Counted from the first letter of the stretch, positions 16,334 to 57,592 are shown. The stretch is DNA of 64,000 nucleotides from Alphaproteobacteria bacterium (GCA_030752605.1 JASMDX010000075.1:17086-81085); one strand, 5' to 3'. The notes: generated from the sequence alone by a model not told the origin. Made by a program: numbers and translations.

Positions 16334-17848
16334 TTACCGCCAGATTGGCCGTCCCGATCCAGGCAGGCCGTAGTCGGCCCATTTTTCGCTAACGTCGGCG
16401 ATCACTTCGTCGCTCATGCGTAGCCGTTTGCCCCAGGTCCGCTTGGTCTCGGGAGGTATCTTGACGGTGGCGTCGAGGCCGAGTTTGCCGCCCAAGCCCA
16501 CCTCGGGCGAGGCAAAATCGAGATAATCGATGGGCGTGTCTTCAATTACCAGGCTATCGCGGCCCGGATCCATGCGGGTGGCGACGGCCCACATCACATC
16601 TTTCCAGTTGCGCGCGTCAATATCATCGTCGACCACGATGGCCAGCTTGGTGTAGGTGAATTGGCGCAGGTACGACCAGACTGCCATCATGATGCGCCGG
16701 GCATGTCCGGGGTAGGCTTTGCGAATGGAGACAACCGCGATGCGGTAGGAACAGGCCTCCGGTGGCAGCCAAAAATCAACGATTTCAGGAAATTGTAGCT
16801 GCAGGATCGGGATATAGAGCTCGTTCAGGGCCATAGACATGACCGCCGGCTCGTCGGGCGGCGGTCCGGTGTAGGTGGAGAGGTAGGTCGGCTTCCTGCG
16901 CATGGTGACCGCGCTGAGGGTGAAGACCGGGAACGACGCCACCGCGTTCAGGTGCCCAGTATGGTCCCCATAGGGTCCTTCGTCGCCGAATTCTTCATGC
17001 GAGACATGGCCTTCCAGGACGATCTCGGCTTCCGCCGGTACTTGCAACGGCACCGTCAGGCAATTCGCCATGCCGATCCGGCGGCCCCTTAAAAGACCAG
17101 CGAATTGATATTCCGACAAAGTATCAGGCAGCGGCGTTACCCCTGCGAGCATTGTGCAGGGATCCGCCCCGATGGCTGCGGCCACCGGCATCGGCTTGCC
17201 GTGAGCCTCGACCCAGCGGCGGTAATGCTGTGCCCCGCCCCGATGTGACATCCAGCGCATCAATACCTTGTTGCGGTCGATCACTTGCATTCGGTAGATG
17301 CCGATATTGTATTGATCCTCGGCGCTCTTGCCCGGTCCCTTGGTGATTATCATGGGCCAGATAATCAATGGCGCGGGCTCGCCCGGCCAGCAACGCGGGA
17401 TAGGCAGCCGGGCCAGATCGATCTCGCTACCGCGCCAGGTAATCTCCTGGCAGGGTGGTATCTTGCGCCGCGTTTTTTTTGGGGTCATCGCCCCGACCCG
17501 TTTTAGCAGCGGCATGGCGTCCGCTATGTCTTTCAGATTAGCCGGTGGCGAAGGTTGATGCAGGGCGGCCAGCATTTCACCGACCTGGCGCAATTCATCG
17601 GCCTTGCGCCCCATTGCCATGGCGACGCGGTCGACCGTGCCGAATAGATTGACCAGCACCGGCGTATCGTAGGTCTGGCCGTCCGGGCCGATGGGATTTT
17701 CAAATAGTGCCGCCGGTCCGCCTTCGGCCAGCAGGCGGGTCTGGATTTCGGTCATTTCCAGGGATGTCGAGACCGGCGTCTTGATCCGCACCAACTGTTT
17801 TTCTTTTTCCAGCCGGTCGATAAATTTGCCGAGGGTAAGGTCGATCAT
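16334..17848 (-). CDS. ubiD: UbiD-family decarboxylase (4-hydroxy-3-polyprenylbenzoate decarboxylase)
   Basis: 504 aa from MIDLTLGKFIDRLEKEKQLVRIKTPVS…, colinear with UbiD. AAGGCGGAG RBS. 10 bp downstream of ubiV. Confidence 0.8.
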   Translation of the reverse strand: MIDLTLGKFIDRLEKEKQLVRIKTPVSTSLEMTEIQTRLLAEGGPAALFENPIGPDGQTYDTPVLVNLFGTVDRVAMAMGRKADELRQVGEMLAALHQPSPPANLKDIADAMPLLKRVGAMTPKKTRRKIPPCQEITWRGSEIDLARLPIPRCWPGEPAPLIIWPMIITKGPGKSAEDQYNIGIYRMQVIDRNKVLMRWMSHRGGAQHYRRWVEAHGKPMPVAAAIGADPCTMLAGVTPLPDTLSEYQFAGLLRGRRIGMANCLTVPLQVPAEAEIVLEGHVSHEEFGDEGPYGDHTGHLNAVASFPVFTLSAVTMRRKPTYLSTYTGPPPDEPAVMSMALNELYIPILQLQFPEIVDFWLPPEACSYRIAVVSIRKAYPGHARRIMMAVWSYLRQFTYTKLAIVVDDDIDARNWKDVMWAVATRMDPGRDSLVIEDTPIDYLDFASPEVGLGGKLGLDATVKIPPETKRTWGKRLRMSDEVIADVSEKWADYGLPGSGRPIWR

Positions 17849-17858
17849 CGCTCCGCCT

Positions 17859-18794
17859 TTACTCAGCCGCCGCTTCGACCCAAAGCCGGCCTTCTTGGCC
17901 ATGCAGGTAGCCATTGGCCAAGGGTACATCGCCGATGATCTCGTCCAGACGCGCCTCCGCTTCCTCCACCGCCATTGCATCGTCGAGTGCGCTGCGGAAC
18001 AGCGCGGCGACCTGCACCATGTCACAACTGTGCGGCCATAGCCGGAAGCTGTCGATCCCGGCGGCTTTCAACGCGGGCAGTTCAGCCAGCAGGCTGCAAT
18101 AGGTGTCGGACAGGGTCTGCGTGCCATTGATGGCCAGGAAAGGCTCGTCATCCAGGGTCTCGATGGTCAGGCCGTCGGGATCATTACCGCAAACGAATTG
18201 GCAGCCGTCCTTGTGCAGATCATGGGCCCGCGCGTGATAGCAGCGGGCCGAAATCGCCAGGGGCAGCCGGCCAAAAACCTGCACCTCCAGCGATACATCC
18301 TTGACGGCTTTGGTTTGGCCCAGGGCTTCGAGGGTGTCGAGCGAAAGCTCCGCCGGTAGCGAGATCCGATAGGCACCGCGCTTGGCCAGGTAGTTGATGG
18401 TGCCTCCGTTGTAGGCATTGACGAAAGGTCCGATAACGTGGCGCCGCCCGGCCAGCAGTGATGCGGTGGAAATATCATTGGCCTCGAAGGTCAGATCCGC
18501 GTCGACGGTGGTCTGTTTGATCTCATCCATCTCCTCCGCCGTCATGATCAACGCCAGGGTCGAGAGCACGACATCCTTGCCGGCCTTTTTCAGGCGCTCA
18601 TGCACCGCCGCGATATGCGGCAGGATAAATGGCCGCCGTTTGGCGCAAACAACCTCGCCCAGATAGACCGTTTCGATGTCCGCTTCGTCGGCGATGCGGA
18701 AATAGAAATCCCGCCAGCGTTCCGCATCCCAATGAAACAGCGTTGGTCCCAATGCCAGGCTGGTGGTTGATTTGGCCGCTTTCCGGTTTGTCAT
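17859..18794 (-). CDS. ubiV: U32-family peptidase-like protein UbiV
   Basis: …LALGPTLFHWDAERWRDFY…VYLGEVVCAKRR…VVLSTLALI… matches YhbV/UbiV. 4-nt ATGA overlap with ubiU. Confidence 0.8.
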   Translation of the reverse strand: MTNRKAAKSTTSLALGPTLFHWDAERWRDFYFRIADEADIETVYLGEVVCAKRRPFILPHIAAVHERLKKAGKDVVLSTLALIMTAEEMDEIKQTTVDADLTFEANDISTASLLAGRRHVIGPFVNAYNGGTINYLAKRGAYRISLPAELSLDTLEALGQTKAVKDVSLEVQVFGRLPLAISARCYHARAHDLHKDGCQFVCGNDPDGLTIETLDDEPFLAINGTQTLSDTYCSLLAELPALKAAGIDSFRLWPHSCDMVQVAALFRSALDDAMAVEEAEARLDEIIGDVPLANGYLHGQEGRLWVEAAAE

Positions 18795-19819
18795 CGCCAG
18801 GCCCTCCGATAGGCGCCGGAGGTTTCGCGCTGGCCCTCGGTCACATCCGCCAACTGGGGCATCTCGGGGATCGGCTCGCCCCGGCGGCAGGCGTCGATGG
18901 CGGCGCGGAAGGCCGCGACCACTTGTGCCGTGTAGGCGCGGCCGCGCTGCCGGCCCTCGATCTTCAAGGCGGAAACGCCGGCGGCCATCAACTCCGGCAA
19001 CAAGGGCAGGACGTTGAGGGAGGTCGGTGCCTCGAACAGGTACGAGGCGCGGCCGTCAGCCACGAAACGGCCCTTGCACAGGGTGGGATAACCGGCGGCG
19101 TCGCTTTGCTGAAAGATGTTGATGGTGAAATCGCCCAGTCGCGAGACCATCTCGGAGCCACGCTCCTCATAGCGGACATGGCTGGCGGGCGAACACACCC
19201 CGGTGATATTGGGTGACTTGCCGGTAACGTAGGACGACAGCAGGCACCGCCCCTCGGCCATGGGGCACATGCCGCCAAAGGCGAAAACTTCCGTCTCCAC
19301 CGGGATCTGGCTGTTCAACTCGGCGATATCCTCCACCGTCAGAACCCTGGGCAGGACCACGCGGCGTACGCCGAATGCCTCGTGATAAAAGCGGATCGCC
19401 TCGGCGTTCGAGGCCGAGGCCTGCACGGATAGATGCAGGCGCAAATCCGGGTGCTGCCTGGCCGCGTAGTCGAGGATGCCAATATCGGCCAGGATAACCG
19501 CGTCAACGCCTAGGTCGGCGGCGCAATCGATGGCGCGGTGCCAGGCCTCGGGCGCACCGGCGCGGGGAAAGGTGTTGATGGCGACAAAGACCATGCAGTA
19601 GCGCGCGTGGGCATATTCCAGGCCGTCCGCCAGTTCTTCCGGGCTGAAATTTAGGCCGGGGAAATTGCGCGCGTTGGTTTCGTCACGAAAGCCGAGATAG
19701 ACCGCTTCCGCCCCGGCATCGACGGCGGCCCGCAACGCCGCCGGCGTGCCCGCCGGGCAGATTAGTTCCAGATCACCCAAAATGGTTTCGGGTTTGGCTT
19801 TGGCACCGGTTGTGGCCAT
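18791..19819 (-). CDS. ubiU: U32-family peptidase-like Fe-S protein UbiU
   Basis: …LELICPAGTPAALRAAVDAGAEAVYLGFRDETNARNFPGLNFSPEE… …VFAFGGMCPMAEGRCLLSSY…GVCSPASHV…LCKGRF (4-Cys cluster). Strongly colinear with E. coli YhbU/UbiU. Confidence 0.85.
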   Translation of the reverse strand: MATTGAKAKPETILGDLELICPAGTPAALRAAVDAGAEAVYLGFRDETNARNFPGLNFSPEELADGLEYAHARYCMVFVAINTFPRAGAPEAWHRAIDCAADLGVDAVILADIGILDYAARQHPDLRLHLSVQASASNAEAIRFYHEAFGVRRVVLPRVLTVEDIAELNSQIPVETEVFAFGGMCPMAEGRCLLSSYVTGKSPNITGVCSPASHVRYEERGSEMVSRLGDFTINIFQQSDAAGYPTLCKGRFVADGRASYLFEAPTSLNVLPLLPELMAAGVSALKIEGRQRGRAYTAQVVAAFRAAIDACRRGEPIPEMPQLADVTEGQRETSGAYRRAWR

Positions 19820-19821
19820 GT

Positions 19822-20580
19822 TTATCCCTGTACCGCTGGTGTTTTCGAGGCGCGGCGGCGGCGTGATGAACCGCTCCGCGCCATGCTCTGGTGCAGATGA
19901 TCAACGGCGGCGGTTTGCGTCTCGATCCGTTCCATGGCGGGTTGCAACAGCGCATCCTGCAGCATGGCCATGTCGGCTCCGGCCCGGCGCGCCAATCGCA
20001 AGGCGACTTTGGCGGCCCGCCGCGCGGGCCGCGCCAAAGGGCCGGCCCGGACCAGGATATCGTCGATAATGTCGATTTCCTCGCCATCGACGGCGTTGCG
20101 CAGGGCTACCACGGCCTCCGTATCACCCTCGATCAACAGGCGGCGGGAAAAAAACAGCGCATCGCCGTCAACCCGGCCTTCCAGAAGATCGATCAGGGCC
20201 AGGAGAGAGCCGTGTATGGCCGCCGTGGCGCGGGACACATCAGCTTCGCGGGCAATGGTTAGCTTTGGTTGTTCGGCATCCGCTTTCAGCAGAAAGCGGA
20301 TCGGCAGATCGACGGGATCGATCAGGAATATCGTGTCGGCATGGCTGTCCAGGCGTTCAAACATTCCTGGATGCTGCTTGGTGACGGACGCCATCACGGC
20401 GCGCAGGAGGGGCCGCAGCACTACGTTGGGGATTGGTGCCAGCAACAAACCACCCAACAGCACTGGCGAAAAGGGCGGAACCATGCTTGCCCGGCCCGCG
20501 CTTATGGCGCCTTTGCCCCCTTGTTCAGGGCTATCCTGAGAGTCATTCAAAATATCGGTCATAGCGGTCAAATTTACCAT
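19822..20580 (-). CDS. ubiT: SCP2-domain protein UbiT (start uncertain)
   Basis: …LFFSRRLLIEGDTEAVVALRNAV… SCP2 signature as in YhbT/UbiT. Directly upstream of ubiU. Alternative starts at 20562 and 20484. Confidence 0.75.
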   Translation of the reverse strand: MVNLTAMTDILNDSQDSPEQGGKGAISAGRASMVPPFSPVLLGGLLLAPIPNVVLRPLLRAVMASVTKQHPGMFERLDSHADTIFLIDPVDLPIRFLLKADAEQPKLTIAREADVSRATAAIHGSLLALIDLLEGRVDGDALFFSRRLLIEGDTEAVVALRNAVDGEEIDIIDDILVRAGPLARPARRAAKVALRLARRAGADMAMLQDALLQPAMERIETQTAAVDHLHQSMARSGSSRRRRASKTPAVQG

Positions 20581-20674: not shown

Positions 20675-20706
20675 GCCCTATTTGAAGCGTGCCATCCGAT
20701 AGGGCG
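20675..20706 (-). terminator. putative intrinsic terminator (stem CGCCCTAT/ATAGGGCG followed by UAUUAUAU) at the 3' end of the seven-gene operon
   Basis: 8-9 bp inverted repeat overlapping the oxidoreductase stop codon. A U-rich tract follows on the minus strand. The loop is long (17 nt), so confidence is moderate. Confidence 0.35.
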
Positions 20707-21931
20707 TCAGATCCACATCGGTAGGTTCACCGGCGACCAGCGCGGCGGTAATGCGGCCAGTGTTTGGCGCCATGCCGAAACCGTAGTGGCTGTGGCCAAA
20801 GGCGGCAAACAGGTCACGCTGGCCCGGCACCGTGCCGATGCAGGGCAGGCTATCTGGGAACGATGGGCGGCTGCCCATCCATTCTACCGGGTCGTCGGTG
20901 TTGATGTCGGGGAACAGCCGTTTCGCCAGGCCCTTGAAAATTTCAGCCCGACGATAGTTAGGCGCGGCATCAAGGCCGGCGAATTCGGCGGTGCCGGCAC
21001 AGCGCACCCCGGCCAGCATGGAAGAGGCTACGAATTTGCTCTCCGTATCCATGATGGAATTATTAACCGTGATGCCCGGCTGTTGCAGGATCAGATGATA
21101 GCCGCGTTCGGCCTCCAGCGGCAGATTTAGGCCCGATTGCTCTAGCAGCGGCGCAAGCAGGCGTGCCGACCAGGCGCCGGCGGCGATGACCACTTTGTCG
21201 CTGGTAATTTCGCCATCATCCGTCTGCAGCCGCCAGCCACCGCTTTCTTGTGGCGCGATCCGGTTAACGCCGGTCTGCCTGAACACCGCTCCCATATCCT
21301 GGGCCTTGGCGACCAGGGCCTTGCCAACGCCACCGGGTGAAAGGGCACGGGCCTGCGACTTGATCAATACCGCCGCTTTGTAGCGGGGCGACAGCGCGGG
21401 TTCAAGCTCATGGAGTGCGCCATCGTCAACGACCTCCAACGGCACATCGCGGTCCAGGCGCAGTTGCCAGCCCAACTGCTTCAGGTCAATCTCGGCTGGA
21501 TCACGGTAGATATGAACGTAGAAACTATCGCTGATCAGATGCTCCGAACCGGTACCCTGCAAAAGCTGGCGGTAAAGTTCGATATTGGGCCGGTTCAAGG
21601 CTTTCATGGCGTCGGCGATTTGGGGTAACTCGGCGACATTGCCGGCGCGCAGGAATTTTATGGCCCAGGGCAGGAACGAGGGTAGATAAGGCCAACGCAG
21701 TGCGATAGGACCTTCGGGATCCAACAGCCAGCGCGGTACGCTGCGCCACAGCCCCGGCATGGACTGCGGCACGCAGGTCCAGGGCGACACCACCCCGGCG
21801 TTGCCGTGGCTGGCCCCCTCCGCCGGCGGATCACGGTCGACGACCTCGACCGCCAGGCCTTTTTCGCGCAGATATACGGCGGTACAGATGCCGACAATGC
21901 CGGCGCCTACGATCGTAACCTGCTTAGCCAT
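20678..21931 (-). CDS. FAD-dependent oxidoreductase (DadA/D-amino-acid dehydrogenase-like)
   Basis: MAKQVTIVGAGIVGICTAVYLREKGLAVEVVDRD Rossmann GxGxxG. 417 aa, DAO-family length. Confidence 0.75.
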   Translation of the reverse strand: MAKQVTIVGAGIVGICTAVYLREKGLAVEVVDRDPPAEGASHGNAGVVSPWTCVPQSMPGLWRSVPRWLLDPEGPIALRWPYLPSFLPWAIKFLRAGNVAELPQIADAMKALNRPNIELYRQLLQGTGSEHLISDSFYVHIYRDPAEIDLKQLGWQLRLDRDVPLEVVDDGALHELEPALSPRYKAAVLIKSQARALSPGGVGKALVAKAQDMGAVFRQTGVNRIAPQESGGWRLQTDDGEITSDKVVIAAGAWSARLLAPLLEQSGLNLPLEAERGYHLILQQPGITVNNSIMDTESKFVASSMLAGVRCAGTAEFAGLDAAPNYRRAEIFKGLAKRLFPDINTDDPVEWMGSRPSFPDSLPCIGTVPGQRDLFAAFGHSHYGFGMAPNTGRITAALVAGEPTDVDLTPYRMARFK

Positions 21932-25293: not shown

Positions 25294-27369
25294 TCAATTC
25301 TCCGCCCCGTCGATTTCGATCAGGAAATTATCCGCTGCGTCCACCGACAAGCGGTCTTTCGGTCCGACAAACACCGTCGTGGTCAGCTCCTCCACCAGCA
25401 GCGGGCCGTCCCGGCAAAAGCCTGGCCGCAGATCGGCGCCGGTATAGACAGGCGTCTCCTGCCAGCCATGCCTGCCGTCCGTAAAGACTTGGCGCAGCGC
25501 GGTGGGTTCGGGCCGTTTATCCGATGGCTCAGCTGATATCGGATCCGTGACATCGATCAAGCCACGTGCGGTGACACGCAGGGCGGTGATCTCGATGGTG
25601 CCGCCCGGCTGGGTGTGGCCGTACTGCCGTTGATGATCCGCATCGAAGGAAACTCGAACGGCGCCTGGGTCGAAGCTGTCATCGGACAAGGCGACGCGGA
25701 TCGACCACAACTGGCCGCGATAGCGTAAGTCCAATTCCCGCTGCACTATCGCCTTGTCGCCGCTGAATCCTTCGGCGGCCAGCGCGGCCTGCGCCCGATC
25801 AGCCAGGGGCTCGAAAGCCTGTTGCAAGGTGGTGCCGTCGACGCTGTCCAGATTGTCGAAATGCACGGCCAGATAATCCTGGCGAATGTCCGTGTGCAAC
25901 ATGCCCAGGGCGCAAAAGGCGCCCGCCTGGCGCGGCACATAAGCCTGGCCGCAGCCCAACGAGCGGGCCACGGAGGCGCCATGCATGGGCCCGGCGCCGC
26001 CAGCGGCTACCAGAGTGAAGCGGCGCGGATCGTGGCCCCGCTGGATCGAGATATGCTCCACCGCATGCAGCAGGTTCTGTTCCAACAGGCGGATGATGCC
26101 TGCTGCCGCTTCTTCGACCCGAATTCCCAAAGGGGCCGCGATCTTGCTCTCGATAGCCTGCCACGCCAGCTTGTCGTCCAAGGTCACGCTGCCGCCCGCA
26201 TAGGGACCGGGGCGCAGGCGGCCCAGAACCATATAGGCGTCGGTGACGGTTGGCTGATCGCCGCCCTGGCCATAACAGGCCGGGCCGGGCAGGGCACCCG
26301 CGCCCAGTGGGCCCACATGCAGCAAACCGGCCTCGTCCACATGGGCGATGGTGCCGCCGCCCGCACCCACGGTATGGATTTCCACCGAGGGCGTGGCCAG
26401 GTGATAGCCGTCGATGTTCAGCTCGTCCGTCACGCCGACCTGGCCTTCGCCCATCAGGGTAACATCGCAACTGGTGCCGCCGATCTCCATGGCGATCAGA
26501 TTGTTCGTGCTCGCCGCCCGGCTATAGAGGCCCAGGGCGCCGACGCCGGCGGCGGGACCCGAGAGCACCAGATTGACCGGCCGCTCCGAGACCTGTTCGA
26601 CGGACACCGCGCCGCCGTTGCTTTGCAGCAATAAAATCGGCCGGGCCAAGCCGTTATCGCGTAAATGGCTGTCCAGATCCCTTAGGTAACCGACCACATT
26701 CGGTGCGATGTAGGCATTGACCACGGTGGTCGAGGTGCGTTCGTACTCCCCCATGATCGGGGCGATGCGGCTGGATAGCGAGACCCAGGGAAATGCTTCC
26801 AGGTGTTTCGCCACCGCATCCTCGTGCGCCGGATTGCCATAGCTGTTCAGCAAGGCAACGGCGATGGCGTCCACCTCTTCCTCGGCAAAGACCGCCATCG
26901 CCGCATCAACGTCGCTCAATGCGATGGACGCCAGTTCGACACCGTTCTTGTCCAGGCGGCCAGCCACGGGTTGGCGGAGATAACGCGGCACCAAAACGTC
27001 GGGAAAAGGTGCGCGGTGATCCCACATGTTCTCCCGTATACCACGGCGTACTTCCAGGCTGTCGCGGAAGCCGGTGGTGGTCAGCAGGCCGACCTTGGCG
27101 CCTTTCTTTTCTAGAATGGTGTTCGTAGCGACGGTGGATCCATGAAAAAACAAAGCGCAATTGCCAAGTAAATCAGACAGTTCGATCGACAACTGGTCCG
27201 CCGCCCGCGCCAGCACCGACATGACACCCTGGCTGGGATCGGCGGGCACGGAGGGCGCCTTGAACACCCACAGGGAGCCGGTTTGATCGCGCAGCACCAT
27301 GTCCGTGAAGGTGCCGCCCACATCGACGCCGATGCGCCAAGGTGCTGCTGGTTGCGCGCCGCTCACCAC
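25294..27369 (-). CDS. hyuA: hydantoinase A/oxoprolinase family protein
   Basis: 691 aa. WRIGVDVGGTFTDMVL ATPase motif, …GGTSCDV… GTG start overlapping the upstream TGA (GTGA). Confidence 0.85.
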   Translation of the reverse strand: MVSGAQPAAPWRIGVDVGGTFTDMVLRDQTGSLWVFKAPSVPADPSQGVMSVLARAADQLSIELSDLLGNCALFFHGSTVATNTILEKKGAKVGLLTTTGFRDSLEVRRGIRENMWDHRAPFPDVLVPRYLRQPVAGRLDKNGVELASIALSDVDAAMAVFAEEEVDAIAVALLNSYGNPAHEDAVAKHLEAFPWVSLSSRIAPIMGEYERTSTTVVNAYIAPNVVGYLRDLDSHLRDNGLARPILLLQSNGGAVSVEQVSERPVNLVLSGPAAGVGALGLYSRAASTNNLIAMEIGGTSCDVTLMGEGQVGVTDELNIDGYHLATPSVEIHTVGAGGGTIAHVDEAGLLHVGPLGAGALPGPACYGQGGDQPTVTDAYMVLGRLRPGPYAGGSVTLDDKLAWQAIESKIAAPLGIRVEEAAAGIIRLLEQNLLHAVEHISIQRGHDPRRFTLVAAGGAGPMHGASVARSLGCGQAYVPRQAGAFCALGMLHTDIRQDYLAVHFDNLDSVDGTTLQQAFEPLADRAQAALAAEGFSGDKAIVQRELDLRYRGQLWSIRVALSDDSFDPGAVRVSFDADHQRQYGHTQPGGTIEITALRVTARGLIDVTDPISAEPSDKRPEPTALRQVFTDGRHGWQETPVYTGADLRPGFCRDGPLLVEELTTTVFVGPKDRLSVDAADNFLIEIDGAEN

Positions 27370-27767
27370 CGGGACGCCTTGTCTTGGATCGAAACGTGGG
27401 CCGCGACGACCTTCCAGCCCAGATCGGGAAACTTCACCCAGGTTTGCGATTGCCGGCCCACTTCGTCCTGACCGCGGACCTTGAATTCCAGGTTCACGGT
27501 GGCGAAACTGTCGCCCAGGGTGAGGATTTCCAGGCGACGGCGCACTTCCTTGATGCCGGGACCTGGCGCGCGCGAGGTTCGGTGTTTATGGATCTCGTCG
27601 AAACCATAGCCGTTTTCGTGCATGGCATAGCGAATTGTCTTGGTGCTGTCCCAAAAGGTGTTGTCCAGAACATTCACATCTTTGTCGATCAGGGCCTGTT
27701 CATATTCCTCGAACAGGGCAGTAATTTCCGCCACTACGTCCGGATCGTTTTCGACAAGTGTATTCAC
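27363..27767 (-). CDS. DUF3225 / NTF2-like protein (AtzH/HpxZ-like)
   Basis: ~134 aa from a GTG that overlaps the amidase TGA (GTGA). VNTLVENDPDVVAEITALFEEYEQALIDKDVNVLDNTFWDS… NTF2-like cone. The 183-aa ORF-track call is an over-extension into the amidase gene. Confidence 0.6.
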   Translation of the reverse strand: MNTLVENDPDVVAEITALFEEYEQALIDKDVNVLDNTFWDSTKTIRYAMHENGYGFDEIHKHRTSRAPGPGIKEVRRRLEILTLGDSFATVNLEFKVRGQDEVGRQSQTWVKFPDLGWKVVAAHVSIQDKASRW

Positions 27768-28942
27768 GCGGAATTCTCCATTGCTAGGGCTAGGGCAGTC
27801 AGTTGGGCGTCCGTGCCCCAGCGGCCAATGATCGACATGCCAACAGGCAGGCCATCGATAGTAGCGCCAGGGATCGATACTTGCGGTACCCCGGTCAGGC
27901 CGCCGTGAGTGCACAGACAGGCGATCTGCATGCGCAGAGGGTCGGTCTGGTTGATCGGCAGGCCCTTCATCGGTGCTGGAAATGGTGTCGTCGGAAGGCA
28001 GAGCACGGTGTTGGGCGGCAACAGATAATCCAGCCGGGTCCGAGCCTCCTGGCGCATCATGTTGGCCCAGTCGCGCTCGGCTTCGGGAATGGCGGCGGCG
28101 GTGGCTAGGCCGCGGGCGACGGAGTAAGCCATGGCCGGATTGGTTGTTTCCAGCCAGTCCTTGAAGGTCAGCCAGCCTTCATGGGATTGCAGGGTACGCT
28201 GCGCCCTGGCCCAGGTGCTCAGACCAGGCGGTGCCATGACCTCTTCTTCAATTGTTTCCACCAATTCGCCCAGGCGCTCGATAATGGGTAATAGGGCGGC
28301 ATGTAGCTTGCCGTCCGCGAAGCCGAAGGCATCCACCGCGACGATCAGGCGGTCCGGCAGTTCGGTTGGAATATCTTCCGCCAACATGACGGCGGATGCC
28401 CTGGCGAAGGTCTTGGCGTCGCGGGCGAACCAACCGGTCGTATCGGAACTGGGCGCTTGCGGCATCATACCGCCAAGCTCCAGCCGGCCATGGGTGGGGC
28501 GGATGCCGTATAGACCGCAGAAACTGGCTGGCACCCGAACCGAGCCGCCGGTATCCGTGCCCAGGGCGATGTCGCACATATCTGCGGCCACTGCCGCCGC
28601 CGAGCCGGCGGAGGAGCCACCCGGTACCCGGTCAGGCGCGGCACTGTTCACCGGCGTGCCATGAAAGACATTCTCGCCCAGGATGCCTAGGGAGACTTCA
28701 TCGGTAATCGCCTTGCCCACCAGATCGGCGCCGCCGTCCAGCAAAACCTGCACGGCCCAGGCGTGCCGCTTTGCCGGTTCATGGTTGCCCGGCCAGTCTG
28801 GATTGCCGCCGCCCGTGGGATGCCCAGCCACATCAAACAAATCCTTGGCCACGAAGGTCAGGCCCGATAGCGGCCCATTCGGTGCGCCTTCGATATGTAC
28901 CGACGAGCCTGGCACCAACGCGCCGACCGTGTCTTGCATCAT
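27764..28942 (-). CDS. amidase-signature family amidase (short form)
   Basis: …GGSSAGSAAAVAADMCDIALGTDTGGSVRVPASFCG… AS signature with the Ser-cisSer-Lys triad region. 392 aa. Start abuts the upstream stop with 0-bp gap. Confidence 0.8.
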   Translation of the reverse strand: MMQDTVGALVPGSSVHIEGAPNGPLSGLTFVAKDLFDVAGHPTGGGNPDWPGNHEPAKRHAWAVQVLLDGGADLVGKAITDEVSLGILGENVFHGTPVNSAAPDRVPGGSSAGSAAAVAADMCDIALGTDTGGSVRVPASFCGLYGIRPTHGRLELGGMMPQAPSSDTTGWFARDAKTFARASAVMLAEDIPTELPDRLIVAVDAFGFADGKLHAALLPIIERLGELVETIEEEVMAPPGLSTWARAQRTLQSHEGWLTFKDWLETTNPAMAYSVARGLATAAAIPEAERDWANMMRQEARTRLDYLLPPNTVLCLPTTPFPAPMKGLPINQTDPLRMQIACLCTHGGLTGVPQVSIPGATIDGLPVGMSIIGRWGTDAQLTALALAMENSA

Positions 28943-29956
28943 CTAGCCCTCCAACAATTCTTGCACCGCCGCGCGCACATGCGCCTCATCATCGGTGTTG
29001 TCGATAGGGTTGCCCGCGCGGTGGCCCCAGATGGATTCGATGGGCCGGAACTCAGCGTTCGGCATTTGCGTGCATTCGGCCTCGCTATCCTCGGGCGTGA
29101 AGTAGAGATCCGTGCGCGAGGGCATGATCATGGCGCGGGCCTCGATGGCGCCCAGGGCGGTGGCCAGATCGCCGTTATAAATCTCGTTGTCAGATATATC
29201 TGAATCGTACCAGACCGCCAGCATGGCAAGCAGATCATCGCCATTGCGGCGCAGGAAATTTGCCTCCCAGCCGCGCACCAGATAATCCTCCAACGAGGCG
29301 AAACCCAGCTCCAGGTGCTTTTCCTGACGATAGAAGGCTTGGCTCATGGCCCAACCGGCATACAAGCGCCCCATGGCGCGCAAGCCACGCACGGGCCGGG
29401 CGGTGAAGCCACTCTCCTGCCAGGCCGGATCGGCGGTCAAGGTGGCGCGCACACCTTCGAGGAAAACCTTGTTATGGGGCGTGGTACGTGCCGAGCCGCA
29501 GACGGCGCAAATGGCGTCTACTTGATCCGGGAAGATGGCGCCCCAATGCAGGGCTTGTTGGGCGCCCATTGACCAGCCATAGACGAGAGCCAGATGCTCG
29601 ATTCCAAAATTTTCTTTTAGCAAGCGGTTCTGGGCCTGCACGTTGTCCCAATGGCTGAAGCGGGGAAAGCGCCCCATGCCATAGGGTTCCGCGATGTTGG
29701 AGGGAGAGGAAGAGAGTCCGTTGCCGAACATGTTGGGGATGATGATGAAGTACTTTTCTGGATCCAGGATACCGCCCGGACGGATCAACCATTCGATATC
29801 GATATGCTGGGCGCCATACGAGGTGGGATAGAGCACCACGTTGGATTTATCCGCCGCCAGTTTGCCATAGGTTTGATAGGTCAATTGCGCATTGGTCAGG
29901 GTCATGCCCCGCTGTAGGCGCAGATTGTCCAACTCGAAAACCTTGTAATCGTCCAT
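28943..29956 (-). CDS. alpha/beta-hydrolase, homoserine O-acetyltransferase (MetX)-like
   Basis: 337 aa. …LALVYGWSMGAQQALHWG… nucleophile elbow in MetX-like context. First gene of the minus-strand operon. Confidence 0.65.
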   Translation of the reverse strand: MDDYKVFELDNLRLQRGMTLTNAQLTYQTYGKLAADKSNVVLYPTSYGAQHIDIEWLIRPGGILDPEKYFIIIPNMFGNGLSSSPSNIAEPYGMGRFPRFSHWDNVQAQNRLLKENFGIEHLALVYGWSMGAQQALHWGAIFPDQVDAICAVCGSARTTPHNKVFLEGVRATLTADPAWQESGFTARPVRGLRAMGRLYAGWAMSQAFYRQEKHLELGFASLEDYLVRGWEANFLRRNGDDLLAMLAVWYDSDISDNEIYNGDLATALGAIEARAMIMPSRTDLYFTPEDSEAECTQMPNAEFRPIESIWGHRAGNPIDNTDDEAHVRAAVQELLEG

Positions 29957-30050
29957 TTTTGTGCTCCCTCCACTGCTTATCCTATCGCCAGCGGGCGGAG
30001 TGGTCCAATATGATCGCCTGCAATTCGTATTTCAGAGGGCCCCGATTGCC

Positions 30051-31964
30051 ATGACCAAGCCAAAACCAGCATCGCCGACCACCCAGGCAGCGCAAAAGGC
30101 TGTGCTGGAAGCTCTGCCGTTTGAAGATCAATTCGATTTCGAGCAGGCTCAGCGCGGTTTTATTGCCGCCGTGCCCGATGGCCAGGTCACGAATGCGCGC
30201 GGCGCTGAACTTTGGGATTTGCAGGCGTACGATTTTCTGAACCAAGGCGAGGCGCCTGATACGGTCAATCCCAGCCTCTGGCGCATGGCACAATTGAACA
30301 TGAATAACGGCCTCTACAAGGTGTGTGAGCGGGTCTATCAGCTACGTGGCATCGATCTGGCCAATATGACGATCATTGAAGGCGACAGCGGCCTGATCAT
30401 CGTCGATCCCATGACCACGGCCGAGGTGGCAGGCGCTGGGTTGGATCTGTATCATGCCCATCGCCCGGAAAAACCGGTTGTCTGCGTGATCTACTCTCAC
30501 AGTCATGTGGATCACTATGGCGGCGCCATGGGTGTGGCCAGTGCCGAGGATGCCGCATCTGGCAAGGTCAGCGTGATCGCGCCGGATCAGTTTGTCGAGG
30601 AATTAAGCGGCGAAAATGTCATCGCCGGCAATGCCATGATGCGCCGGGCACAGTTCCAGTTCGGCGGTTTGTTGCGCAAGGGAGCGTGCGGCCAGGTTGA
30701 TGCCGGCCTGGGCAAGGTCACGGCGCGGGGTCGGGTGACCTTGATCTCGCCGACATTAGTGATAACCGAGCCAACGGAAACTCATGCCGTTGATGGCGTG
30801 GAGATAGTCTTTCAACTGGCCCCGGATTCAGAGGCGCCGGCGGAAATGCATATGTTCTTGCCGCAATTCGGTGTCTTGAATATGGCGGAGAACACCACGC
30901 GCCTGCTACACAACTTTATTCCCTTTCGAGGCTCGGTCGCGCGCGACCCGCGCATCTGGTCGCGGCATATCTCCGATGCGATCACGATGTTTGGTGACCG
31001 GACCGAAGTTCTGATCGGCCAGCATCACTGGCCCACATGGGGCCGGGACGAGGTTAGGGCCTATTTGGAAAAGCAGCGGGATCTGTACAAATATATTCAC
31101 GACCAGACAGTCCGTTTAATGAACCATGGCCTCAACCGTGAGGAAATCTCCGAGGAGCTGGACCTGCCTCCCGGTCTGGATCAGGAATGGTCCGTGCGCG
31201 GTTACTACGGCAGCGTCAGCCATAACGCCAAGGCTGTCTATCAGCGATATCTCAGCTGGTATGATGCCAACCCGGCCAATCTGAACCAGTTGCCCCGGCG
31301 CGAAGCCGGAAGAAAGATGGTCGAATATATGGGCGGCGCCGAGGCGCTGCTTTTTCGTGCTCAGGCGGATTTCGGGGTTGGGGAGTACCGTTGGGTGGCG
31401 CAAGTGTTGAGCCATCTGGTCTTTGCCGAGCCGGAAAATATGGCAGGGCGGCAACTATTGGCAGATACCTTTGAACAACTCGGTTATCAGGCGGAAAGTG
31501 CGACCTGGCGTAACGCCTATCTGTATGGCGCGCAGGAACTGCGCCACGGCTTGGCCAAACTGCCTCCGCGCCGGATGATCAGCCCGGACATGCTGACCGC
31601 GCTGAGCGGTGGGGCGCTGTTTGATTTCATGGCCGTGCGTCTGAATGGCGCCAAGGCCGCCGGCCTGCGCTGGCGGATCAACTGGCATTTGAGTGACATC
31701 GACGAACGCCTGATGATGAACCTGCAGAATTGCACCATGACGTACATGCCTGGCGAGGTGGCGGACGACGCGGCTGCGTCCGTGCGGGTCAGCCGCGAGG
31801 TGCTGGTGGCGGTAAACGTGCGTAAGACCAATGTGACAGAGGCCTTGGCCGCCGGCGAAATGGAAATCAAAGGTGATCCGGCGCTGGTCGTGCGGCTTTT
31901 CGAAATATTGGATGATTTTGATATGATGTTCGATGTCGTCGCACCCAGTCTGAAGGGAGAGTGA
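30051..31964 (+). CDS. alkyl/aryl-sulfatase, SdsA1-type (MBL fold + dimerisation + SCP2-like C-terminus)
   Basis: …VIYSHSHVDHYGGAMGV… HxHxDH metallo-beta-lactamase motif. ~640 aa, three-domain architecture. A longer start at 29961 is possible. Confidence 0.75.
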   Translation: MTKPKPASPTTQAAQKAVLEALPFEDQFDFEQAQRGFIAAVPDGQVTNARGAELWDLQAYDFLNQGEAPDTVNPSLWRMAQLNMNNGLYKVCERVYQLRGIDLANMTIIEGDSGLIIVDPMTTAEVAGAGLDLYHAHRPEKPVVCVIYSHSHVDHYGGAMGVASAEDAASGKVSVIAPDQFVEELSGENVIAGNAMMRRAQFQFGGLLRKGACGQVDAGLGKVTARGRVTLISPTLVITEPTETHAVDGVEIVFQLAPDSEAPAEMHMFLPQFGVLNMAENTTRLLHNFIPFRGSVARDPRIWSRHISDAITMFGDRTEVLIGQHHWPTWGRDEVRAYLEKQRDLYKYIHDQTVRLMNHGLNREEISEELDLPPGLDQEWSVRGYYGSVSHNAKAVYQRYLSWYDANPANLNQLPRREAGRKMVEYMGGAEALLFRAQADFGVGEYRWVAQVLSHLVFAEPENMAGRQLLADTFEQLGYQAESATWRNAYLYGAQELRHGLAKLPPRRMISPDMLTALSGGALFDFMAVRLNGAKAAGLRWRINWHLSDIDERLMMNLQNCTMTYMPGEVADDAAASVRVSREVLVAVNVRKTNVTEALAAGEMEIKGDPALVVRLFEILDDFDMMFDVVAPSLKGE

Positions 31965-31968
31965 AACT

Positions 31969-32943
31969 TTGACGGAAACAACGTACAGCATCGGTGTTAT
32001 CGGCCTCGGTATCATGGGGCGGCGGATGATCGCGAATGTGATCAAACATTTCCGCCTTGCTATCAGCGGCGCCTGGGATCCGGATTCCCGGGCCTGCGCG
32101 GACGCAGCGGCGGAAACGCCTGACCTGGCGATCATGGCGGATGCGGACGCGGTTATCGCGCGGGCGGATCTGATATACGTTGCCACGCCGCCTTTATGGC
32201 ACCGGGAATATGCGGACCGGGCCATGGTGGCCGAAAAGCCGCTCTATTGTGAAAAACCCCTGGGCATCGATGTGGAGAGCAGCCGCGATCTGGTGGCGAC
32301 CTTGGACAACAGCTATACGCCCAACGTAGTGAATTTCATCCAGGCATCATCTCGCGCCGTGACCTTGACCAAGGAGCGCGTCGACAACGGCGCCCTGGGT
32401 GAAATCATCGGCGTCGATATCATCGTACATTTTTCCCGCTGGCCTCGGGATTGGCAGGCAGACGCCGATTGGCTACGTTTTCGTGATCAGGGCGGCTATA
32501 CACGCGAGGTGTTGTCGCATTTTATCTTTGTCACCCAGCGTCTGTTGGGGCCGGCAGCCTTGATCACCTCCTGTCCGGTCTATCAGGATGATCCTGAATT
32601 GTGCGAGACGCATATTTCCGCCGTGCTCGATTGTGGTGGCGTGCCGATTTCGGTGTTGGGGACCAGCGGCGGGGCGGGACCCGACAGGGTGGAAATGACG
32701 GTCTGGGGCAGCGAGCGGAGTCACCGTTTGCATGATTGGTTCTTCCTTCAATCCAGCAACGGCGGTGACTGGATGCAGGAATTCCCAGAGGTCGAGGATC
32801 CGCGCGTTGAAAGTTTCGGCTTGCAATTGGACAATGTGGCGGCTTGGATGGACGGCGAACCCAATGTCCTAGCCAGTGCCGCCGATGCCCTGGGGGTGCA
32901 AGAACTGGTCGAGGCGATGTTGGGTGCTGAAATAGGCGAGTAG
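31969..32943 (+). CDS. Gfo/Idh/MocA family oxidoreductase
   Basis: TTG start with GAAGGGAGAG RBS. …YSIGVIGLGIMGRRM… NAD(P)-binding Rossmann. Confidence 0.65.
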   Translation: MTETTYSIGVIGLGIMGRRMIANVIKHFRLAISGAWDPDSRACADAAAETPDLAIMADADAVIARADLIYVATPPLWHREYADRAMVAEKPLYCEKPLGIDVESSRDLVATLDNSYTPNVVNFIQASSRAVTLTKERVDNGALGEIIGVDIIVHFSRWPRDWQADADWLRFRDQGGYTREVLSHFIFVTQRLLGPAALITSCPVYQDDPELCETHISAVLDCGGVPISVLGTSGGAGPDRVEMTVWGSERSHRLHDWFFLQSSNGGDWMQEFPEVEDPRVESFGLQLDNVAAWMDGEPNVLASAADALGVQELVEAMLGAEIGE

Positions 32944-32948
32944 ACGGA

Positions 32949-34013
32949 ATGGTGAGGGAAGACCATAGGCCCATTGAGGGGGCCTGCGCCTGGTTAGGTA
33001 CGGAGATGGTGGATAATTCGCGTTGGCGGTTAGTGCTGTCGAATGACGATGTCGCGGAACTAAAGGCCGCCTGCGCCTCGGTTCAACAGAGCGGTATTCC
33101 ATGGCCGCAGATGAGCAAGGCGGACTTTCCACTCGTGCATCTGCCTGCCAAGCTGGCGGATATGGCCGAGGAGTTGGAACATGGCAGCGGCCTGGCCAAT
33201 TTGTCCGGGTTGCCCGTTGAGGCCTTCGGCGATGGTTTGCGCCATGTTTGGTATGGCATCGGCTTGCATATGGGGCAGCCGGTGGAACAAGATGGCAATG
33301 GCCTGTTGATGCGCGATATCCAGGACGAAAGCCAGGATACCGACACCATATTTGGGCATAAATTAACGGCGCGGAATGGCAGTACCTTTACTTCGTCCAA
33401 GGCGCGCACACTGTCCAACAATCTGTTGCGCTTTCATACCGACCGTGCGGATGTGGTGGCGCTGTTATGTTTGCGTCAGGCACCGATTGGCGGGGTCAGT
33501 CGGATCGCTTCTTCGGCCACGGTCCACAATGTGATGTTAGGGCGGCACCCGGATTTGGCGGCGCTGTTATATGGTCCCTATCACCGCTCCCGCCTGGGCG
33601 AGGAACGCGGTGGTGAGGCCATGAGCTATGCCTTGCCTGTGTTCGGCCAACGGGACGGCCGCTTTACCTCGCATTATTCCCGCACCTATGTCGAAGCGGC
33701 CCAGGAAATGCCCGGTGTTCCAATTATGGAGGACCGCCATTGGCAAGCCCTGGATATGTTGAATGAGCTGGCGGATGAGTTATGCATGGAGATGACCATG
33801 CAGGCCGGTGACATGCAGTTCATCAACAATCATGTGATATATCACGCCCGCACGGCCTTTCAAGACCACCCCGGCAGCAGCGTCGACCAGCGCCGTTGTC
33901 TGCACCGTTTGTGGCTGTCCATGCCCAACAGCCGGCCCTTGCCGGAGGATCATGCGGTGCTATGGCAAAATGTCGAGGCCGGCGCCTTGCGCGGCGGCAT
34001 TATTCAGGGCTAA
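32949..34013 (+). CDS. Fe(II)/2-oxoglutarate-dependent dioxygenase, TauD/TfdA family (AtsK-like?)
   Basis: …LRFHTDRADVVALLCL… (HxD) and …NNHVIYHARTAF… (distal His). 354 aa. Confidence 0.7.
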   Translation: MVREDHRPIEGACAWLGTEMVDNSRWRLVLSNDDVAELKAACASVQQSGIPWPQMSKADFPLVHLPAKLADMAEELEHGSGLANLSGLPVEAFGDGLRHVWYGIGLHMGQPVEQDGNGLLMRDIQDESQDTDTIFGHKLTARNGSTFTSSKARTLSNNLLRFHTDRADVVALLCLRQAPIGGVSRIASSATVHNVMLGRHPDLAALLYGPYHRSRLGEERGGEAMSYALPVFGQRDGRFTSHYSRTYVEAAQEMPGVPIMEDRHWQALDMLNELADELCMEMTMQAGDMQFINNHVIYHARTAFQDHPGSSVDQRRCLHRLWLSMPNSRPLPEDHAVLWQNVEAGALRGGIIQG

Positions 34014-34571: not shown

Positions 34572-36086
34572 ATGACCATGCCTGGCGGCGCCAAATTACT
34601 GGCTCTTGACCTGGATAAAGACAATACGGGACCGCTTTATCGGCAGTTATACGACCTTTTACGCCTGATGATCCTGGATGGCCGTTTGCCATCGGGTAGC
34701 CGCTTGCCGGCCAATCGTGTCTTGGCCCAAGATCTGTCGCTGTCTCGCAATACGGTGGCCACGGCCCTGCAACAGCTTTTGGCCGAAGGATATGTGGAAA
34801 CCCGGCGAGGTGACGGTACCTATGTGGCCTCGGAATTACCCGATGACGTATTGGGCGGACCGGACTGCCACCAGCCTGACCGTCATGCCTACCGAACCGA
34901 GCAAGCGGATGATGTTGCCCGCCGCTATGGTCTTTCCCGACGCGGCCAAACCCTGGCGGCGATCAGCCGGGCCTCGGTGGGCAGTACCACGGCCTTTGCC
35001 CCCGGACCGGATATAGATGCTTTTCCTTTTGCCGTTTGGGCTCGCCTGTTGGCGCGCTTTTGGCGCCGCCCGGGTTCGGAATTGGCAATCAGCCGCGATG
35101 CCGGCGGTTATCCACCCTTGAAGGCGGCGATCGCGGCCTACTTGGGCGCCATGCGCGGCGTGCGCTGCGATCCCGGCCAGATCATCGTGGTCAGCGGGGC
35201 CCAGCAGGCGATCGGCCTGGCGGCCCAGGTTTTGCTGGATCATGATGATCAGGCCATGGTGGAGGAGCCGGGTTATGGCGGTATACGGGGCGCTCTGACC
35301 GCCGCTGGCCTGCGCATGGCGCTTGTGCCCGTCGATGAGGAAGGCATGGATATCGCCGCCGGCGAGGCCCGCGCGCCCATGGCGCGGCTGGCCTGTGTCG
35401 CGCCGTCGCACCAGCATCCCCTGGGCGTGGTGATGAGCCTGCGCCGGCGTTTGGCTCTGATCGAATGGGCCCGGCGGCGCCAGGGTTGGATTTTGGAAGA
35501 CGACTACGATAGTGAATACCGTTATGCTGGCCGGCCCCTGGCTGCCTTGCAGGGTTTGGACACCACGGGGCGGGTGATCTATGTGGGCAGCTTTTCCAAG
35601 GTGCTGTTTCCCGCCTTGCGACTGGGCTATCTGGTGGTGCCCCCTGATCTGGTGGATCCTTTCATTCGGGCCCGGCGGGTGCTGGACGATCATACCGCCA
35701 TGCTGGCTCAGCCGGTGCTGGCGCGGTTCATCGAGGATGGTCATTTCGCCGCCCATGTGCGCCGTATGCGCCGGCTGTACGCAGACCGTCAAGAAGCCTT
35801 GCTGAGCGCGGCAAAGGCTCATCTGAGCGGTTTGCTTAAGATCGATGCCGATGAGGCCGGCATGCATCTGATCGCCAGTCCGGCGTCCGGGTCAATGGGC
35901 GCGATGGATGACCGATCGATCGCCCAGGCGGCGGCCAAGGCCGGGGTCATGGTCATGGCCTTGAGCACGGCCTATGCCGGCAAGCCTGTGCGCCGGGGCT
36001 TGATACTGGGTTATGCCGCGCACGATGAAGACGCAATCGCGGCTGCCGCCCGGCGTCTTGGTGAAATCATGGCGGCCGCGGCATGA
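34572..36086 (+). CDS. MocR/GabR-type transcriptional regulator (GntR HTH + aminotransferase-like domain)
   Basis: N-terminal …PLYRQLYDLLRLMILDGRLPSGSRLPANRVLAQDLSLSRNTVATALQQLLAEGYVETRRGDGTYVA wHTH. ~400-aa fold-type-I PLP domain. GAGAGGA RBS. Confidence 0.8.
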   Translation: MTMPGGAKLLALDLDKDNTGPLYRQLYDLLRLMILDGRLPSGSRLPANRVLAQDLSLSRNTVATALQQLLAEGYVETRRGDGTYVASELPDDVLGGPDCHQPDRHAYRTEQADDVARRYGLSRRGQTLAAISRASVGSTTAFAPGPDIDAFPFAVWARLLARFWRRPGSELAISRDAGGYPPLKAAIAAYLGAMRGVRCDPGQIIVVSGAQQAIGLAAQVLLDHDDQAMVEEPGYGGIRGALTAAGLRMALVPVDEEGMDIAAGEARAPMARLACVAPSHQHPLGVVMSLRRRLALIEWARRRQGWILEDDYDSEYRYAGRPLAALQGLDTTGRVIYVGSFSKVLFPALRLGYLVVPPDLVDPFIRARRVLDDHTAMLAQPVLARFIEDGHFAAHVRRMRRLYADRQEALLSAAKAHLSGLLKIDADEAGMHLIASPASGSMGAMDDRSIAQAAAKAGVMVMALSTAYAGKPVRRGLILGYAAHDEDAIAAAARRLGEIMAAAA

Positions 36087-57488: not shown

Positions 57489-57592
57489 CACTTGCCCCTT
57501 TCTCCCGTTGTCCACGAACACACTAAATGGTTCATGTCAGTTTTTGGTTCTTTATGGAAAATATTGTAACACTGCCCGAAAGAGTGCGTAAA

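Follow-up and report, generated by a model that had tools for sequence, protein, structure and literature searches.

A PRK08310-family short amidase and an AtzH-like NTF2-fold protein as a probable translationally coupled two-enzyme unit in an alphaproteobacterial operon

The stretch of DNA analysed here, 64,000 nucleotides (nt) from an Alphaproteobacteria bacterium (GCA_030752605.1, JASMDX010000075.1:17086-81085) and referred to below as the window, carries on its minus strand an operon in which the gene of a short amidase-signature amidase overlaps that of a small AtzH-like (DUF3225) protein of the NTF2 fold. An alpha/beta hydrolase gene precedes this pair, and genes for both subunits of a HyuAB-type enzyme, a thiamine-diphosphate (ThDP) enzyme and an oxidoreductase dependent on flavin adenine dinucleotide (FAD) follow it (Table 1). 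The locus is best explained as a translationally coupled two-enzyme unit of a PRK08310-family amidase and an AtzH-like protein, which would act by deamidation followed by decarboxylation; we hold this explanation, its mechanism included, with moderate confidence. A promoter and terminator scan of the operon gave matches no different from the shuffled expectation.

Table 1. Genes and signals of the operon, in the order of transcription
Feature	Position in the window	Strand	Basis	Spacing to the next gene
Alpha/beta hydrolase, MetX-like, PRK07581 family, 337 amino acids (aa); first gene of the operon	28943..29956	-	PRK07581 502 bits, cutoff 332	0 nt (TAGATG: TAG stop abuts ATG)
Short amidase-signature amidase, PRK08310 family, 392 aa, ATG start	27764..28942	-	PRK08310 439.8 bits; motifs; PDB relatives	4-nt overlap
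GGAG Shine-Dalgarno (SD) sequence of the AtzH-like gene	27776..27779	-	Within amidase C-terminal Ala-Met-Glu codons; 8 nt 5' of GTG
GTGA overlap: AtzH-like GTG start (27767-27765) over amidase TGA stop (27766-27764)	27764..27767	-
AtzH-like / DUF3225 NTF2-fold protein, 134 aa	27363..27767	-	PF11533 146.5 bits; HpxZ 137.5 bits; predicted fold	4-nt (start 27366) or 7-nt (start 27369) overlap
GTGGTGA: AtzH-like TGA (27365-27363) and two in-frame GTG candidates for the hyuA start	27363..27369	-
HyuA-type subunit, ATP-dependent hydantoinase/oxoprolinase/lactamase, 691 aa	25294..27369	-	Hydant_A_N, Hydantoinase_A, Hydant_A_C	1 nt (hyuB ATG 1 nt past hyuA stop)
HyuB-type subunit, 577 aa	23559..25292	-	Hydantoinase_B 502.5 bits	32 nt
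ThDP enzyme, acetolactate-synthase-like, PRK07586 family, 524 aa	21952..23526	-	768.7 bits, cutoff 363	20 nt
FAD-dependent oxidoreductase, DAO family, D-amino-acid dehydrogenase-like, 417 aa; last gene of the operon	20678..21931	-	PRK00711 186 bits, below cutoff 383

The product of the small gene belongs to DUF3225, as a preliminary description of this locus, made from the sequence alone, had proposed. Its residues 7-129 match positions 4-124 of the 126 positions of the AtzH-like profile PF11533, far above the cutoff of 27 bits, and its AlphaFold2 model (predicted local distance difference test, pLDDT, 82.4) resembles AtzH (6BJT/6D63) with template modelling (TM) scores of 0.79-0.85 (0.79-0.82 for 6BJT). 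The closest solved structures are 2RCD, AtzH and 2OWP, the identity to AtzH and 2RCD being about 42-46%. The equivalog model for HpxZ (NCBIfam NF033625) was passed only marginally, its cutoff being 135 bits. Since this score is marginal and the Hpx gene context is missing, the label 'oxalurate catabolism protein HpxZ' is probably too specific for this clade. To our knowledge, AtzH, to which the activity of a decarboxylating 1,3-dicarboxyurea amidohydrolase is assigned, is the only DUF3225 protein that has been studied functionally, and it is known only together with the AtzE-AtzG amidase.

The pocket of AtzH is formed by Tyr22, Arg46, Arg63, Arg66, Arg73, Phe94, Arg96, Gln106 and Gln108, and mutagenesis showed that Tyr22 variants abolished the effect of the protein and Arg46 variants lowered it (PMC6219798). 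The alignment of the window protein to AtzH is gap-free to residue 78, and Tyr22, Arg46, Arg63, Arg66, Phe94, Gln106 and Gln108 are retained. Tyr22 and Arg46 are invariant both in 16 members of the clade and in 21 representatives of the family; the latter share 14 invariant columns, including Tyr22, Arg46, Arg105, Gln106, His124 and Ser126. Within the clade the motif FK[V/I/M]RG, with an invariant Lys73, is found, and the position of Arg96 is occupied by Val, Ile or Met; most of the family representatives outside the clade have Arg or Lys there. A catalytic core that is retained in a less positively charged pocket argues for a related reaction on a substrate different from that of AtzH, given the changes at positions 73 and 96, and neither 1-carboxybiuret nor 1,3-dicarboxyurea can be assumed as this substrate.

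The amidase, which the preliminary description had called AtzE-like, proved to belong to a different family. Two AtzE models (NF006631 and TIGR02715) failed, with 184 bits against a cutoff of 461 and 178.9 against 425.75, and the PRK08310 equivalog (NCBIfam NF006169, cutoff 391) was passed, residues 2-388 corresponding to positions 3-390 of the 395 positions of the model. The protein is short at its N-terminus: the match to Pfam Amidase (PF01425, 201 bits) begins at model position 41 and that to AtzE at model position 64, and about 40-60 residues are missing in comparison with the AtzE and GatA models. The amidase-signature motifs are present (KD with Lys33, GGSSAGS at 108-114 and GTDTGGSVRVP at 128-138 with Ser134) and would be expected to hold the Ser-cisSer-Lys catalytic residues. 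No AtzG-like sequence was detected in the window by tblastn with two AtzG-like peptides (all E values above 0.1), and there is no space for an atzG gene upstream of the amidase, because the stop codon of the alpha/beta hydrolase gene abuts the amidase ATG. A 75-residue open reading frame (ORF) upstream of the pair in one related locus (L004) was considered as a possible AtzG and rejected, as it has no relative in the PDB.

Elsewhere in the window (58769-60172, plus strand) a second amidase-signature amidase is encoded, just after the ATPase of a polyamine-type ATP-binding cassette (ABC) transporter (57527-58726). It is full-length (467 aa), and its best NCBIfam models, PRK07056 and PRK06102, both scored below cutoff. 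No other AtzH-like gene was detected anywhere in the window, hence this amidase has no AtzH-like partner, in contrast to the short, paired one.

A scan of one genome per species gave 291 confirmed relatives, and the best 80, together with five metagenome loci, were examined (85 loci, numbered L001 and so on). A PRK08310-type amidase lies directly upstream of the AtzH-like gene in 76 of them. The loci come from Rhodospirillaceae, Bosea, Hyphomicrobiaceae, Reyranellaceae, Acetobacteraceae and Acidiferrobacteraceae (Alpha- and Gammaproteobacteria), as well as from SAR324, Methylomirabilota/Rokubacteria, Verrucomicrobia and Acidobacteria, and the pair was found in about 50 neighbourhood groups. 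A census of neighbours based on greedy ORFs in the 85 loci was noisy owing to antisense ORFs in DNA rich in G and C, and is used only to show the diversity of contexts. A stricter census, limited to genes on the same strand and no more than 150 nt from the pair, gave no consistent third partner, the recurring ones being NUDIX (4), DUF1194 (3), GFO (3), HyuB (2) and AcrB (2), besides single cases such as SecA. Pfam annotation of the extra ORFs of L052 and L082 mostly matched spurious ORFs and was uninformative. Conservation is confined to the amidase/AtzH-like pair, a self-contained module. No paper was found that describes this arrangement or names PRK08310, PRK07581 or PRK07586; the literature searched yielded only the AtzH paper.

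The coupling of the two genes depends on where the small one starts. The mechanical ORF list gave it 183 codons (27363-27914, GTG at 27914), and the preliminary description had preferred a product of 134 aa from a GTG at the amidase stop codon, a choice with which both the lengths of homologues and the upstream frame agree. The best 120 homologues in a collection of 5.8 billion proteins are 123-139 aa long, and 119 of them cover at least 91% of the 134-residue query. In 73 related loci the open frame 5' of the equivalent start runs for anywhere from 2 to 1000 codons; the upstream extension is therefore not conserved, and the 183-residue version was rejected as an over-extension.

The overlap of the amidase TGA with the GTG of the small ORF, as claimed previously, is present on the minus strand as GTGA. 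An SD-like tetramer occurs just 5' of the AtzH-like start in 70 of the 73 loci, and the equivalent of 'atGGAGg' is kept in related loci, where the SD sequence is encoded by the conserved C-terminal Ala-Met-Glu codons of the amidase. One overlap of 4 nt between genes is common in bacterial operons and unremarkable alone. The conservation of this junction across loci is, however, not due to chance: an NTGA overlap joins the amidase and AtzH-like genes in 72 of 76 loci (ATGA in 42, GTGA in 26 and TTGA in 4), and in the remaining four the genes overlap or abut as well. A second overlap had been claimed between the TGA of the small ORF and the GTG of hyuA. The overlap itself exists, but the 4-nt GTGA is not the sole candidate for the hyuA start, since an in-frame GTG lies three bases 5' of it. 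The junction reads ATGGTGA, ATGGTAA or CTGGTGA in relatives; as the upstream GTG corresponds to ATG in several of these, an exclusive GTGA start was not accepted, and relatives with CTG at the first position leave only the GTG of GTGA. In the window both starts (27369 and 27366) appear possible, and each overlaps the AtzH-like stop codon.

Natural fusions were found in a search of 1.84 billion cluster representatives. In protein P0211 (521 aa) an amidase that scores 517 bits with PRK08310 and shares 44% identity with that of the window is joined to an HpxZ-type domain (194 bits) that keeps Arg at the position of AtzH Arg96. Two different samples each gave an assembly of this protein, and its gene is flanked by two ABC transporters of the Peripla_BP_5/6 type (amide/urea-type). 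Protein P0238 (421 aa, 11 contigs) consists of an AtzH-like domain (155 bits with the HpxZ model) and an isochorismatase-family hydrolase, for which the NCBIfam models gave nothing but a weak hit to BiuH (79 bits, cutoff 370). This family likewise gives N-carboxy products. Both fusions support a direct functional tie of AtzH-like proteins to amide- and ureide-cleaving hydrolases, and P0238 suggests that AtzH-like decarboxylases may also serve ureide hydrolases of the cysteine-hydrolase type.

The short amidase was also found on annotated plasmids and secondary replicons of cultured bacteria. In Pseudoroseomonas it is followed by hpxZ, and in Azospirillum it overlaps hpxZ by 4 nt, beside xanthine-dehydrogenase-family genes and DUF1116. 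The order in Paraburkholderia is rutB-like, short amidase, AtzG-like, atzE and hpxZ. The Pleomorphomonas gene stands after allophanate hydrolase, with no hpxZ, and that of Variovorax (L092) belongs to an AmiC-like/ANTAR operon, which also encodes a PRK07581 hydrolase 49% identical to that of the window. In Paracoccus the short amidase is coupled to RidA and a gamma-glutamyltransferase (GGT). On the Paracoccus liaowanqingii plasmid (L094, 5001-8168) the gene of this PRK08310-like amidase (40% identity) overlaps the RidA-family gene by 4 nt and the GGT gene follows, a different small 'reactive-intermediate' protein thus occupying the position of the AtzH-like one. These settings are indicative of small amides and ureides rich in nitrogen, and they show that the short amidase does not depend strictly on an AtzH-like partner.

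The remaining genes of the operon are conserved within narrower limits. In the marine Rhodospirillaceae clade (L001-L023) the order AtzH-like gene, hyuA, hyuB, ThDP enzyme is kept, as is the alpha/beta hydrolase gene upstream; the ThDP enzyme follows hyuB in 21 of the 23 loci and was unseen in L020 and L023, where the contigs stop too early. The DAO-type oxidoreductase occurs in some relatives only (L006, L007, L009, L010 and L012). A further serine esterase of the beta-lactamase family (LipL-like, below cutoff), absent from the window, is encoded between hyuB and the ThDP gene at 14245-15393 of L001, with equivalents in L002, L015, L016 and L019. Distant HyuB and HyuA (29-38% identity, in the order hyuB then hyuA) follow the pair independently, with overlaps of 4-7 nt, in one Rokubacteria and one Verrucomicrobia locus, and in a third group HyuAB lies about 5 kilobases off on the other strand. 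Most of the approximately 50 neighbourhood types have no HyuAB, and the link between HyuAB and the pair is recurrent but lineage-specific.

In tests with NF050156 and NF050157, HyuA was closest to the caprolactamase subunit CapA (600 bits) and HyuB to CapB (360 bits), both below the cutoff of 1000, and neither subunit of the window reaches any curated equivalog cutoff. The preliminary description had the pair feeding into HyuA. This part of it is not supported: outside the marine clade, only two other lineages have HyuAB after the pair, and gene order is not reaction order. A place before the pair suits HyuAB better, because a ring-opening hydantoinase or lactamase would make a ureido or amide substrate and would not consume the product of an amidase.

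In the mechanism that we propose, the amidase would hydrolyse the terminal amide or carbamoyl group of a small anionic carbamoyl, ureido or N-acyl-urea compound, with the release of ammonia and an N-carboxylated product of the carbamic-acid type. The AtzH-like protein, translated from the shared mRNA in concert with the amidase, would then decarboxylate this labile product in a controlled way. In the marine operon, the caprolactamase-like HyuAB would open a ring to give the amidase substrate, and the DAO-type enzyme might oxidise, and the ThDP enzyme decarboxylate, the resulting amino acid. The general idea that an amidase-signature amidase has an AtzH-like partner, the latter dealing with an N-carboxylated product, was already part of the preliminary description, and it fits the published work on AtzH (PMC6219798), the conservation of Tyr22 and Arg46, and the natural fusion. 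For the action of an amidase-signature enzyme on an N-carbamoyl group, AguY is a precedent (PMC12283126). What the sequences themselves show is the layout of the genes, their families, the conserved pairing and coupling, the fusion and the retained catalytic residues. By analogy with AtzEG/AtzH, and in view of the conserved Tyr22 and Arg46, the coupling and the fusions, the two-step mechanism seems to us reasonably probable.

Several points weigh against this account. Simple carbamates lose CO2 spontaneously, so that it is not evident why a decarboxylase would be needed. We know of no activity or substrate for any PRK08310 member or for this AtzH-like clade. The chemistry, the substrate class and the order of steps are what we infer, and the last of these includes the placing of HyuAB, which most plausibly acts upstream of the pair and supplies its amide or ureido substrate. 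The full arginine-rich pocket of AtzH is not found in the window protein, where Arg73 is replaced by Lys and Arg96 by Val. Nine of the 85 loci carry the AtzH-like clade without an adjacent amidase, two of these being on contigs that end too near the gene to judge. Orphans of the same clade (about 75% identity) lie at 9980-10396 of L037, 9992-10396 of L036 and 4291-4710 of L096, and their contexts (overlapping the end of gyrB, after an SBP_bac_5 solute-binding protein gene, and before a pyridoxal phosphate-dependent (PALP) enzyme) are explained by none of the readings considered here. Variovorax, Pleomorphomonas, Aminobacter and Paracoccus have short amidases (no more than 50% identity) that no AtzH-like gene accompanies. 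Finally, the reaction of AtzH itself was deduced from a coupled assay and not directly observed (PMC6219798).

An extension of the same account is that the marine operon might represent an undescribed ATP-dependent route for a hydantoin-type cyclic ureide or lactam. HyuAB would open the ring, an AtzG-independent complex of amidase and AtzH-like protein would pass on the labile N-carboxy intermediate in place of a one-enzyme N-carbamoylase, and the DAO-type and ThDP enzymes would follow; the PRK08310/AtzH-like pair would generally be a widespread 'decarbamoylation cassette' of environmental bacteria. We put this wider picture forward tentatively and regard it as rather doubtful.

Other functions of the pair have been considered. 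It might be an oxalurate unit, in which the short amidase would be a non-orthologous replacement of HpxX/HpxY, the AtzH-like protein would decarboxylate N-carboxy-oxamate to oxamate, and HyuAB might open, for example, parabanate. The HpxZ equivalog is passed and relatives are named HpxZ by NCBI, and the DUF1116 gene that accompanies the Azospirillum pair, along with xanthine-dehydrogenase-family genes, belongs to the AllG family of oxalurate degradation (PMC12625717). However, the score barely exceeds the cutoff, compared with 194-215 bits for canonical-type partners, no AtzE-family or AtzG-like gene is present in the window, genes of purine or allantoin metabolism are missing from the operon, and the neighbourhoods are very heterogeneous. 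The equivalent of Arg96, moreover, is hydrophobic in the clade, yet kept in the Pectobacterium homologue 2RCD (ggt-atzG-atzE-atzH-type cluster, as read from the genus list of PMC6219798), and we consider an oxalurate function unlikely. The absence of an AtzG-like gene and of about 40-60 N-terminal residues from the amidase would suit an AtzH-like protein that is mainly a non-catalytic, structural partner, in the stabilising role that AtzG has for AtzE, and a physical complex would agree with the tight coupling and with the natural fusion. A scaffold would nevertheless have no need of the conserved Tyr22, Arg46, Arg63, Arg66, Gln106 and Gln108, and short amidases of the same family manage without an AtzH-like gene in the four genera named above, while that of Paraburkholderia is followed by AtzG-like, atzE and hpxZ and not by an AtzH-like gene of its own; a merely structural role seems very unlikely.

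It is also conceivable that the amidase cleaves an ordinary carboxamide and that the AtzH-like protein performs an unrelated hydrolysis, isomerisation or dehydration of the NTF2 type, in the marine operon perhaps on the product of HyuAB. Enzymes of the NTF2 fold perform many different chemistries (PMC6219798), the pocket is less cationic than that of AtzH, and in 9 of 85 loci members of the clade have no amidase beside them. We think such a division of labour quite unlikely, considering that almost all loci, across phyla, pair it with the amidase and couple the two translationally, that a fusion exists, and that the closest characterised homologue is AtzH, with 44% identity and the same key residues. 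In a further scheme HyuAB would be an ATP-dependent carboxylase, like the acetone and acetophenone carboxylases, that N-carboxylates an amide or urea-like compound for the pair to dismantle, in the manner of urea carboxylase and allophanate hydrolase. Although HyuA and HyuB are weakly similar to acetophenone carboxylase subunits, and allophanate hydrolase is an amidase-signature enzyme related to the amidase of the window, the caprolactamase is far closer (600 against 293 bits and 360 against 142 bits), a third subunit is not encoded in the operon, and most loci with the pair have no HyuAB, which makes this scheme extremely improbable.

The loci show AtzH-like proteins in a second and much more widespread partnership, with a PRK08310 amidase that has no AtzG, is coupled by a conserved stop/start overlap and is sometimes fused to its partner. 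The reading of the pair as an amidase and a decarboxylase, which we prefer, provides a testable function for two large uncharacterised families that are at present automatically labelled 'amidase' and 'oxalurate catabolism protein HpxZ'. The version found in the window is common in marine Rhodospirillaceae metagenome-assembled genomes and may mark an unrecognised scavenging of nitrogen from cyclic amides and ureides in the ocean.

The operon is neighboured by a divergent cluster (29961-34013, plus strand) that encodes an alkyl-sulfatase-like metallo-beta-lactamase, a GFO/IDH/MocA oxidoreductase and a TauD-type dioxygenase, and is followed by a MocR-type regulator (GntR and aminotransferase domains; 34572-36086, plus strand). 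In close relatives, Rieske dioxygenase subunits are inserted in this region. In the lineage of L055 and L095 the pair is directly followed by a GFO-type oxidoreductase (46% identity to the GFO protein of the window) and a PRK07581 hydrolase (63% identity), homologues of which are both encoded next to the pair in the window; since these loci place the two genes right after the pair, the divergent cluster may belong to the same pathway. The listed sulfatase-like ORF begins with a GTG that lies just 4 nt away from the ATG of the divergent alpha/beta hydrolase gene (29956-29961). Its product is called with 647 aa in relatives and has 667 aa in the ORF list of the window, so the start probably lies about 20 codons further in, which would give a normal intergenic promoter region. 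Directly downstream of the operon (16334-20580, minus strand), genes for a protein with an SCP2 domain, two members of the U32 peptidase family and a decarboxylase of the UbiD family were found, a layout reminiscent of the genes of O2-independent ubiquinone biosynthesis, ubiT/ubiU/ubiV, together with ubiD.

Among the systems described so far, the AtzE-AtzG/AtzH system of the cyanuric acid operon of Pseudomonas sp. ADP (atzDGEHF; PMC6219798) also has an amidase-signature gene followed by a DUF3225 gene, the published order being atzG-atzE-atzH, or ggt-atzG-atzE-atzH in enterobacteria. The fold (TM about 0.8) and the key residues are shared with the pair of the window, as probably is, by analogy, the logic of deamidation followed by decarboxylation. 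The window differs in having an amidase of the PRK08310 family with a shorter N-terminus, no AtzG, AtzD or AtzF, and Val and Lys in place of Arg96 and Arg73, respectively. The HpxX-HpxY-HpxZ system, which with HpxW makes up a proposed oxalurate branch of enterobacterial purine catabolism, is similar in that the small protein marginally passes as HpxZ and is coupled to an amidase-signature amidase. The operon of the window, however, has neither an HpxY of the AtzE type nor an HpxX of the AtzG type, nor an adjacent HpxW of the GGT type (a GGT elsewhere in the genome was not looked for), and its context consists of HyuAB, the ThDP enzyme and the DAO-type oxidoreductase and not of allantoin or purine genes.

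The annotated pairs on Azospirillum brasilense plasmid p4 and on Pseudoroseomonas cervicalis pL11-B are nearer: the two families and their order are the same, and the 4-nt overlap is present in Azospirillum. Their amidases are 46-52% and their AtzH-like proteins 42-48% identical to those of the window, and their neighbours differ (xanthine-dehydrogenase family and DUF1116). With the HpxZ model the Azospirillum partner reaches 215 bits and the P0211 fusion 194 bits, against 137.5 for the protein of the window. ATP-dependent routes through a hydantoinase and an N-carbamoyl amino acid, such as that of N-methylhydantoin amidohydrolase followed by N-carbamoylsarcosine amidase, resemble the marine operon in that the ring opener is encoded together with a decarbamoylating enzyme. 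Those routes use a single carbamoylase of the isochorismatase, nitrilase or M20 type, whereas the operon of the window would use an amidase together with an AtzH-like decarboxylase.

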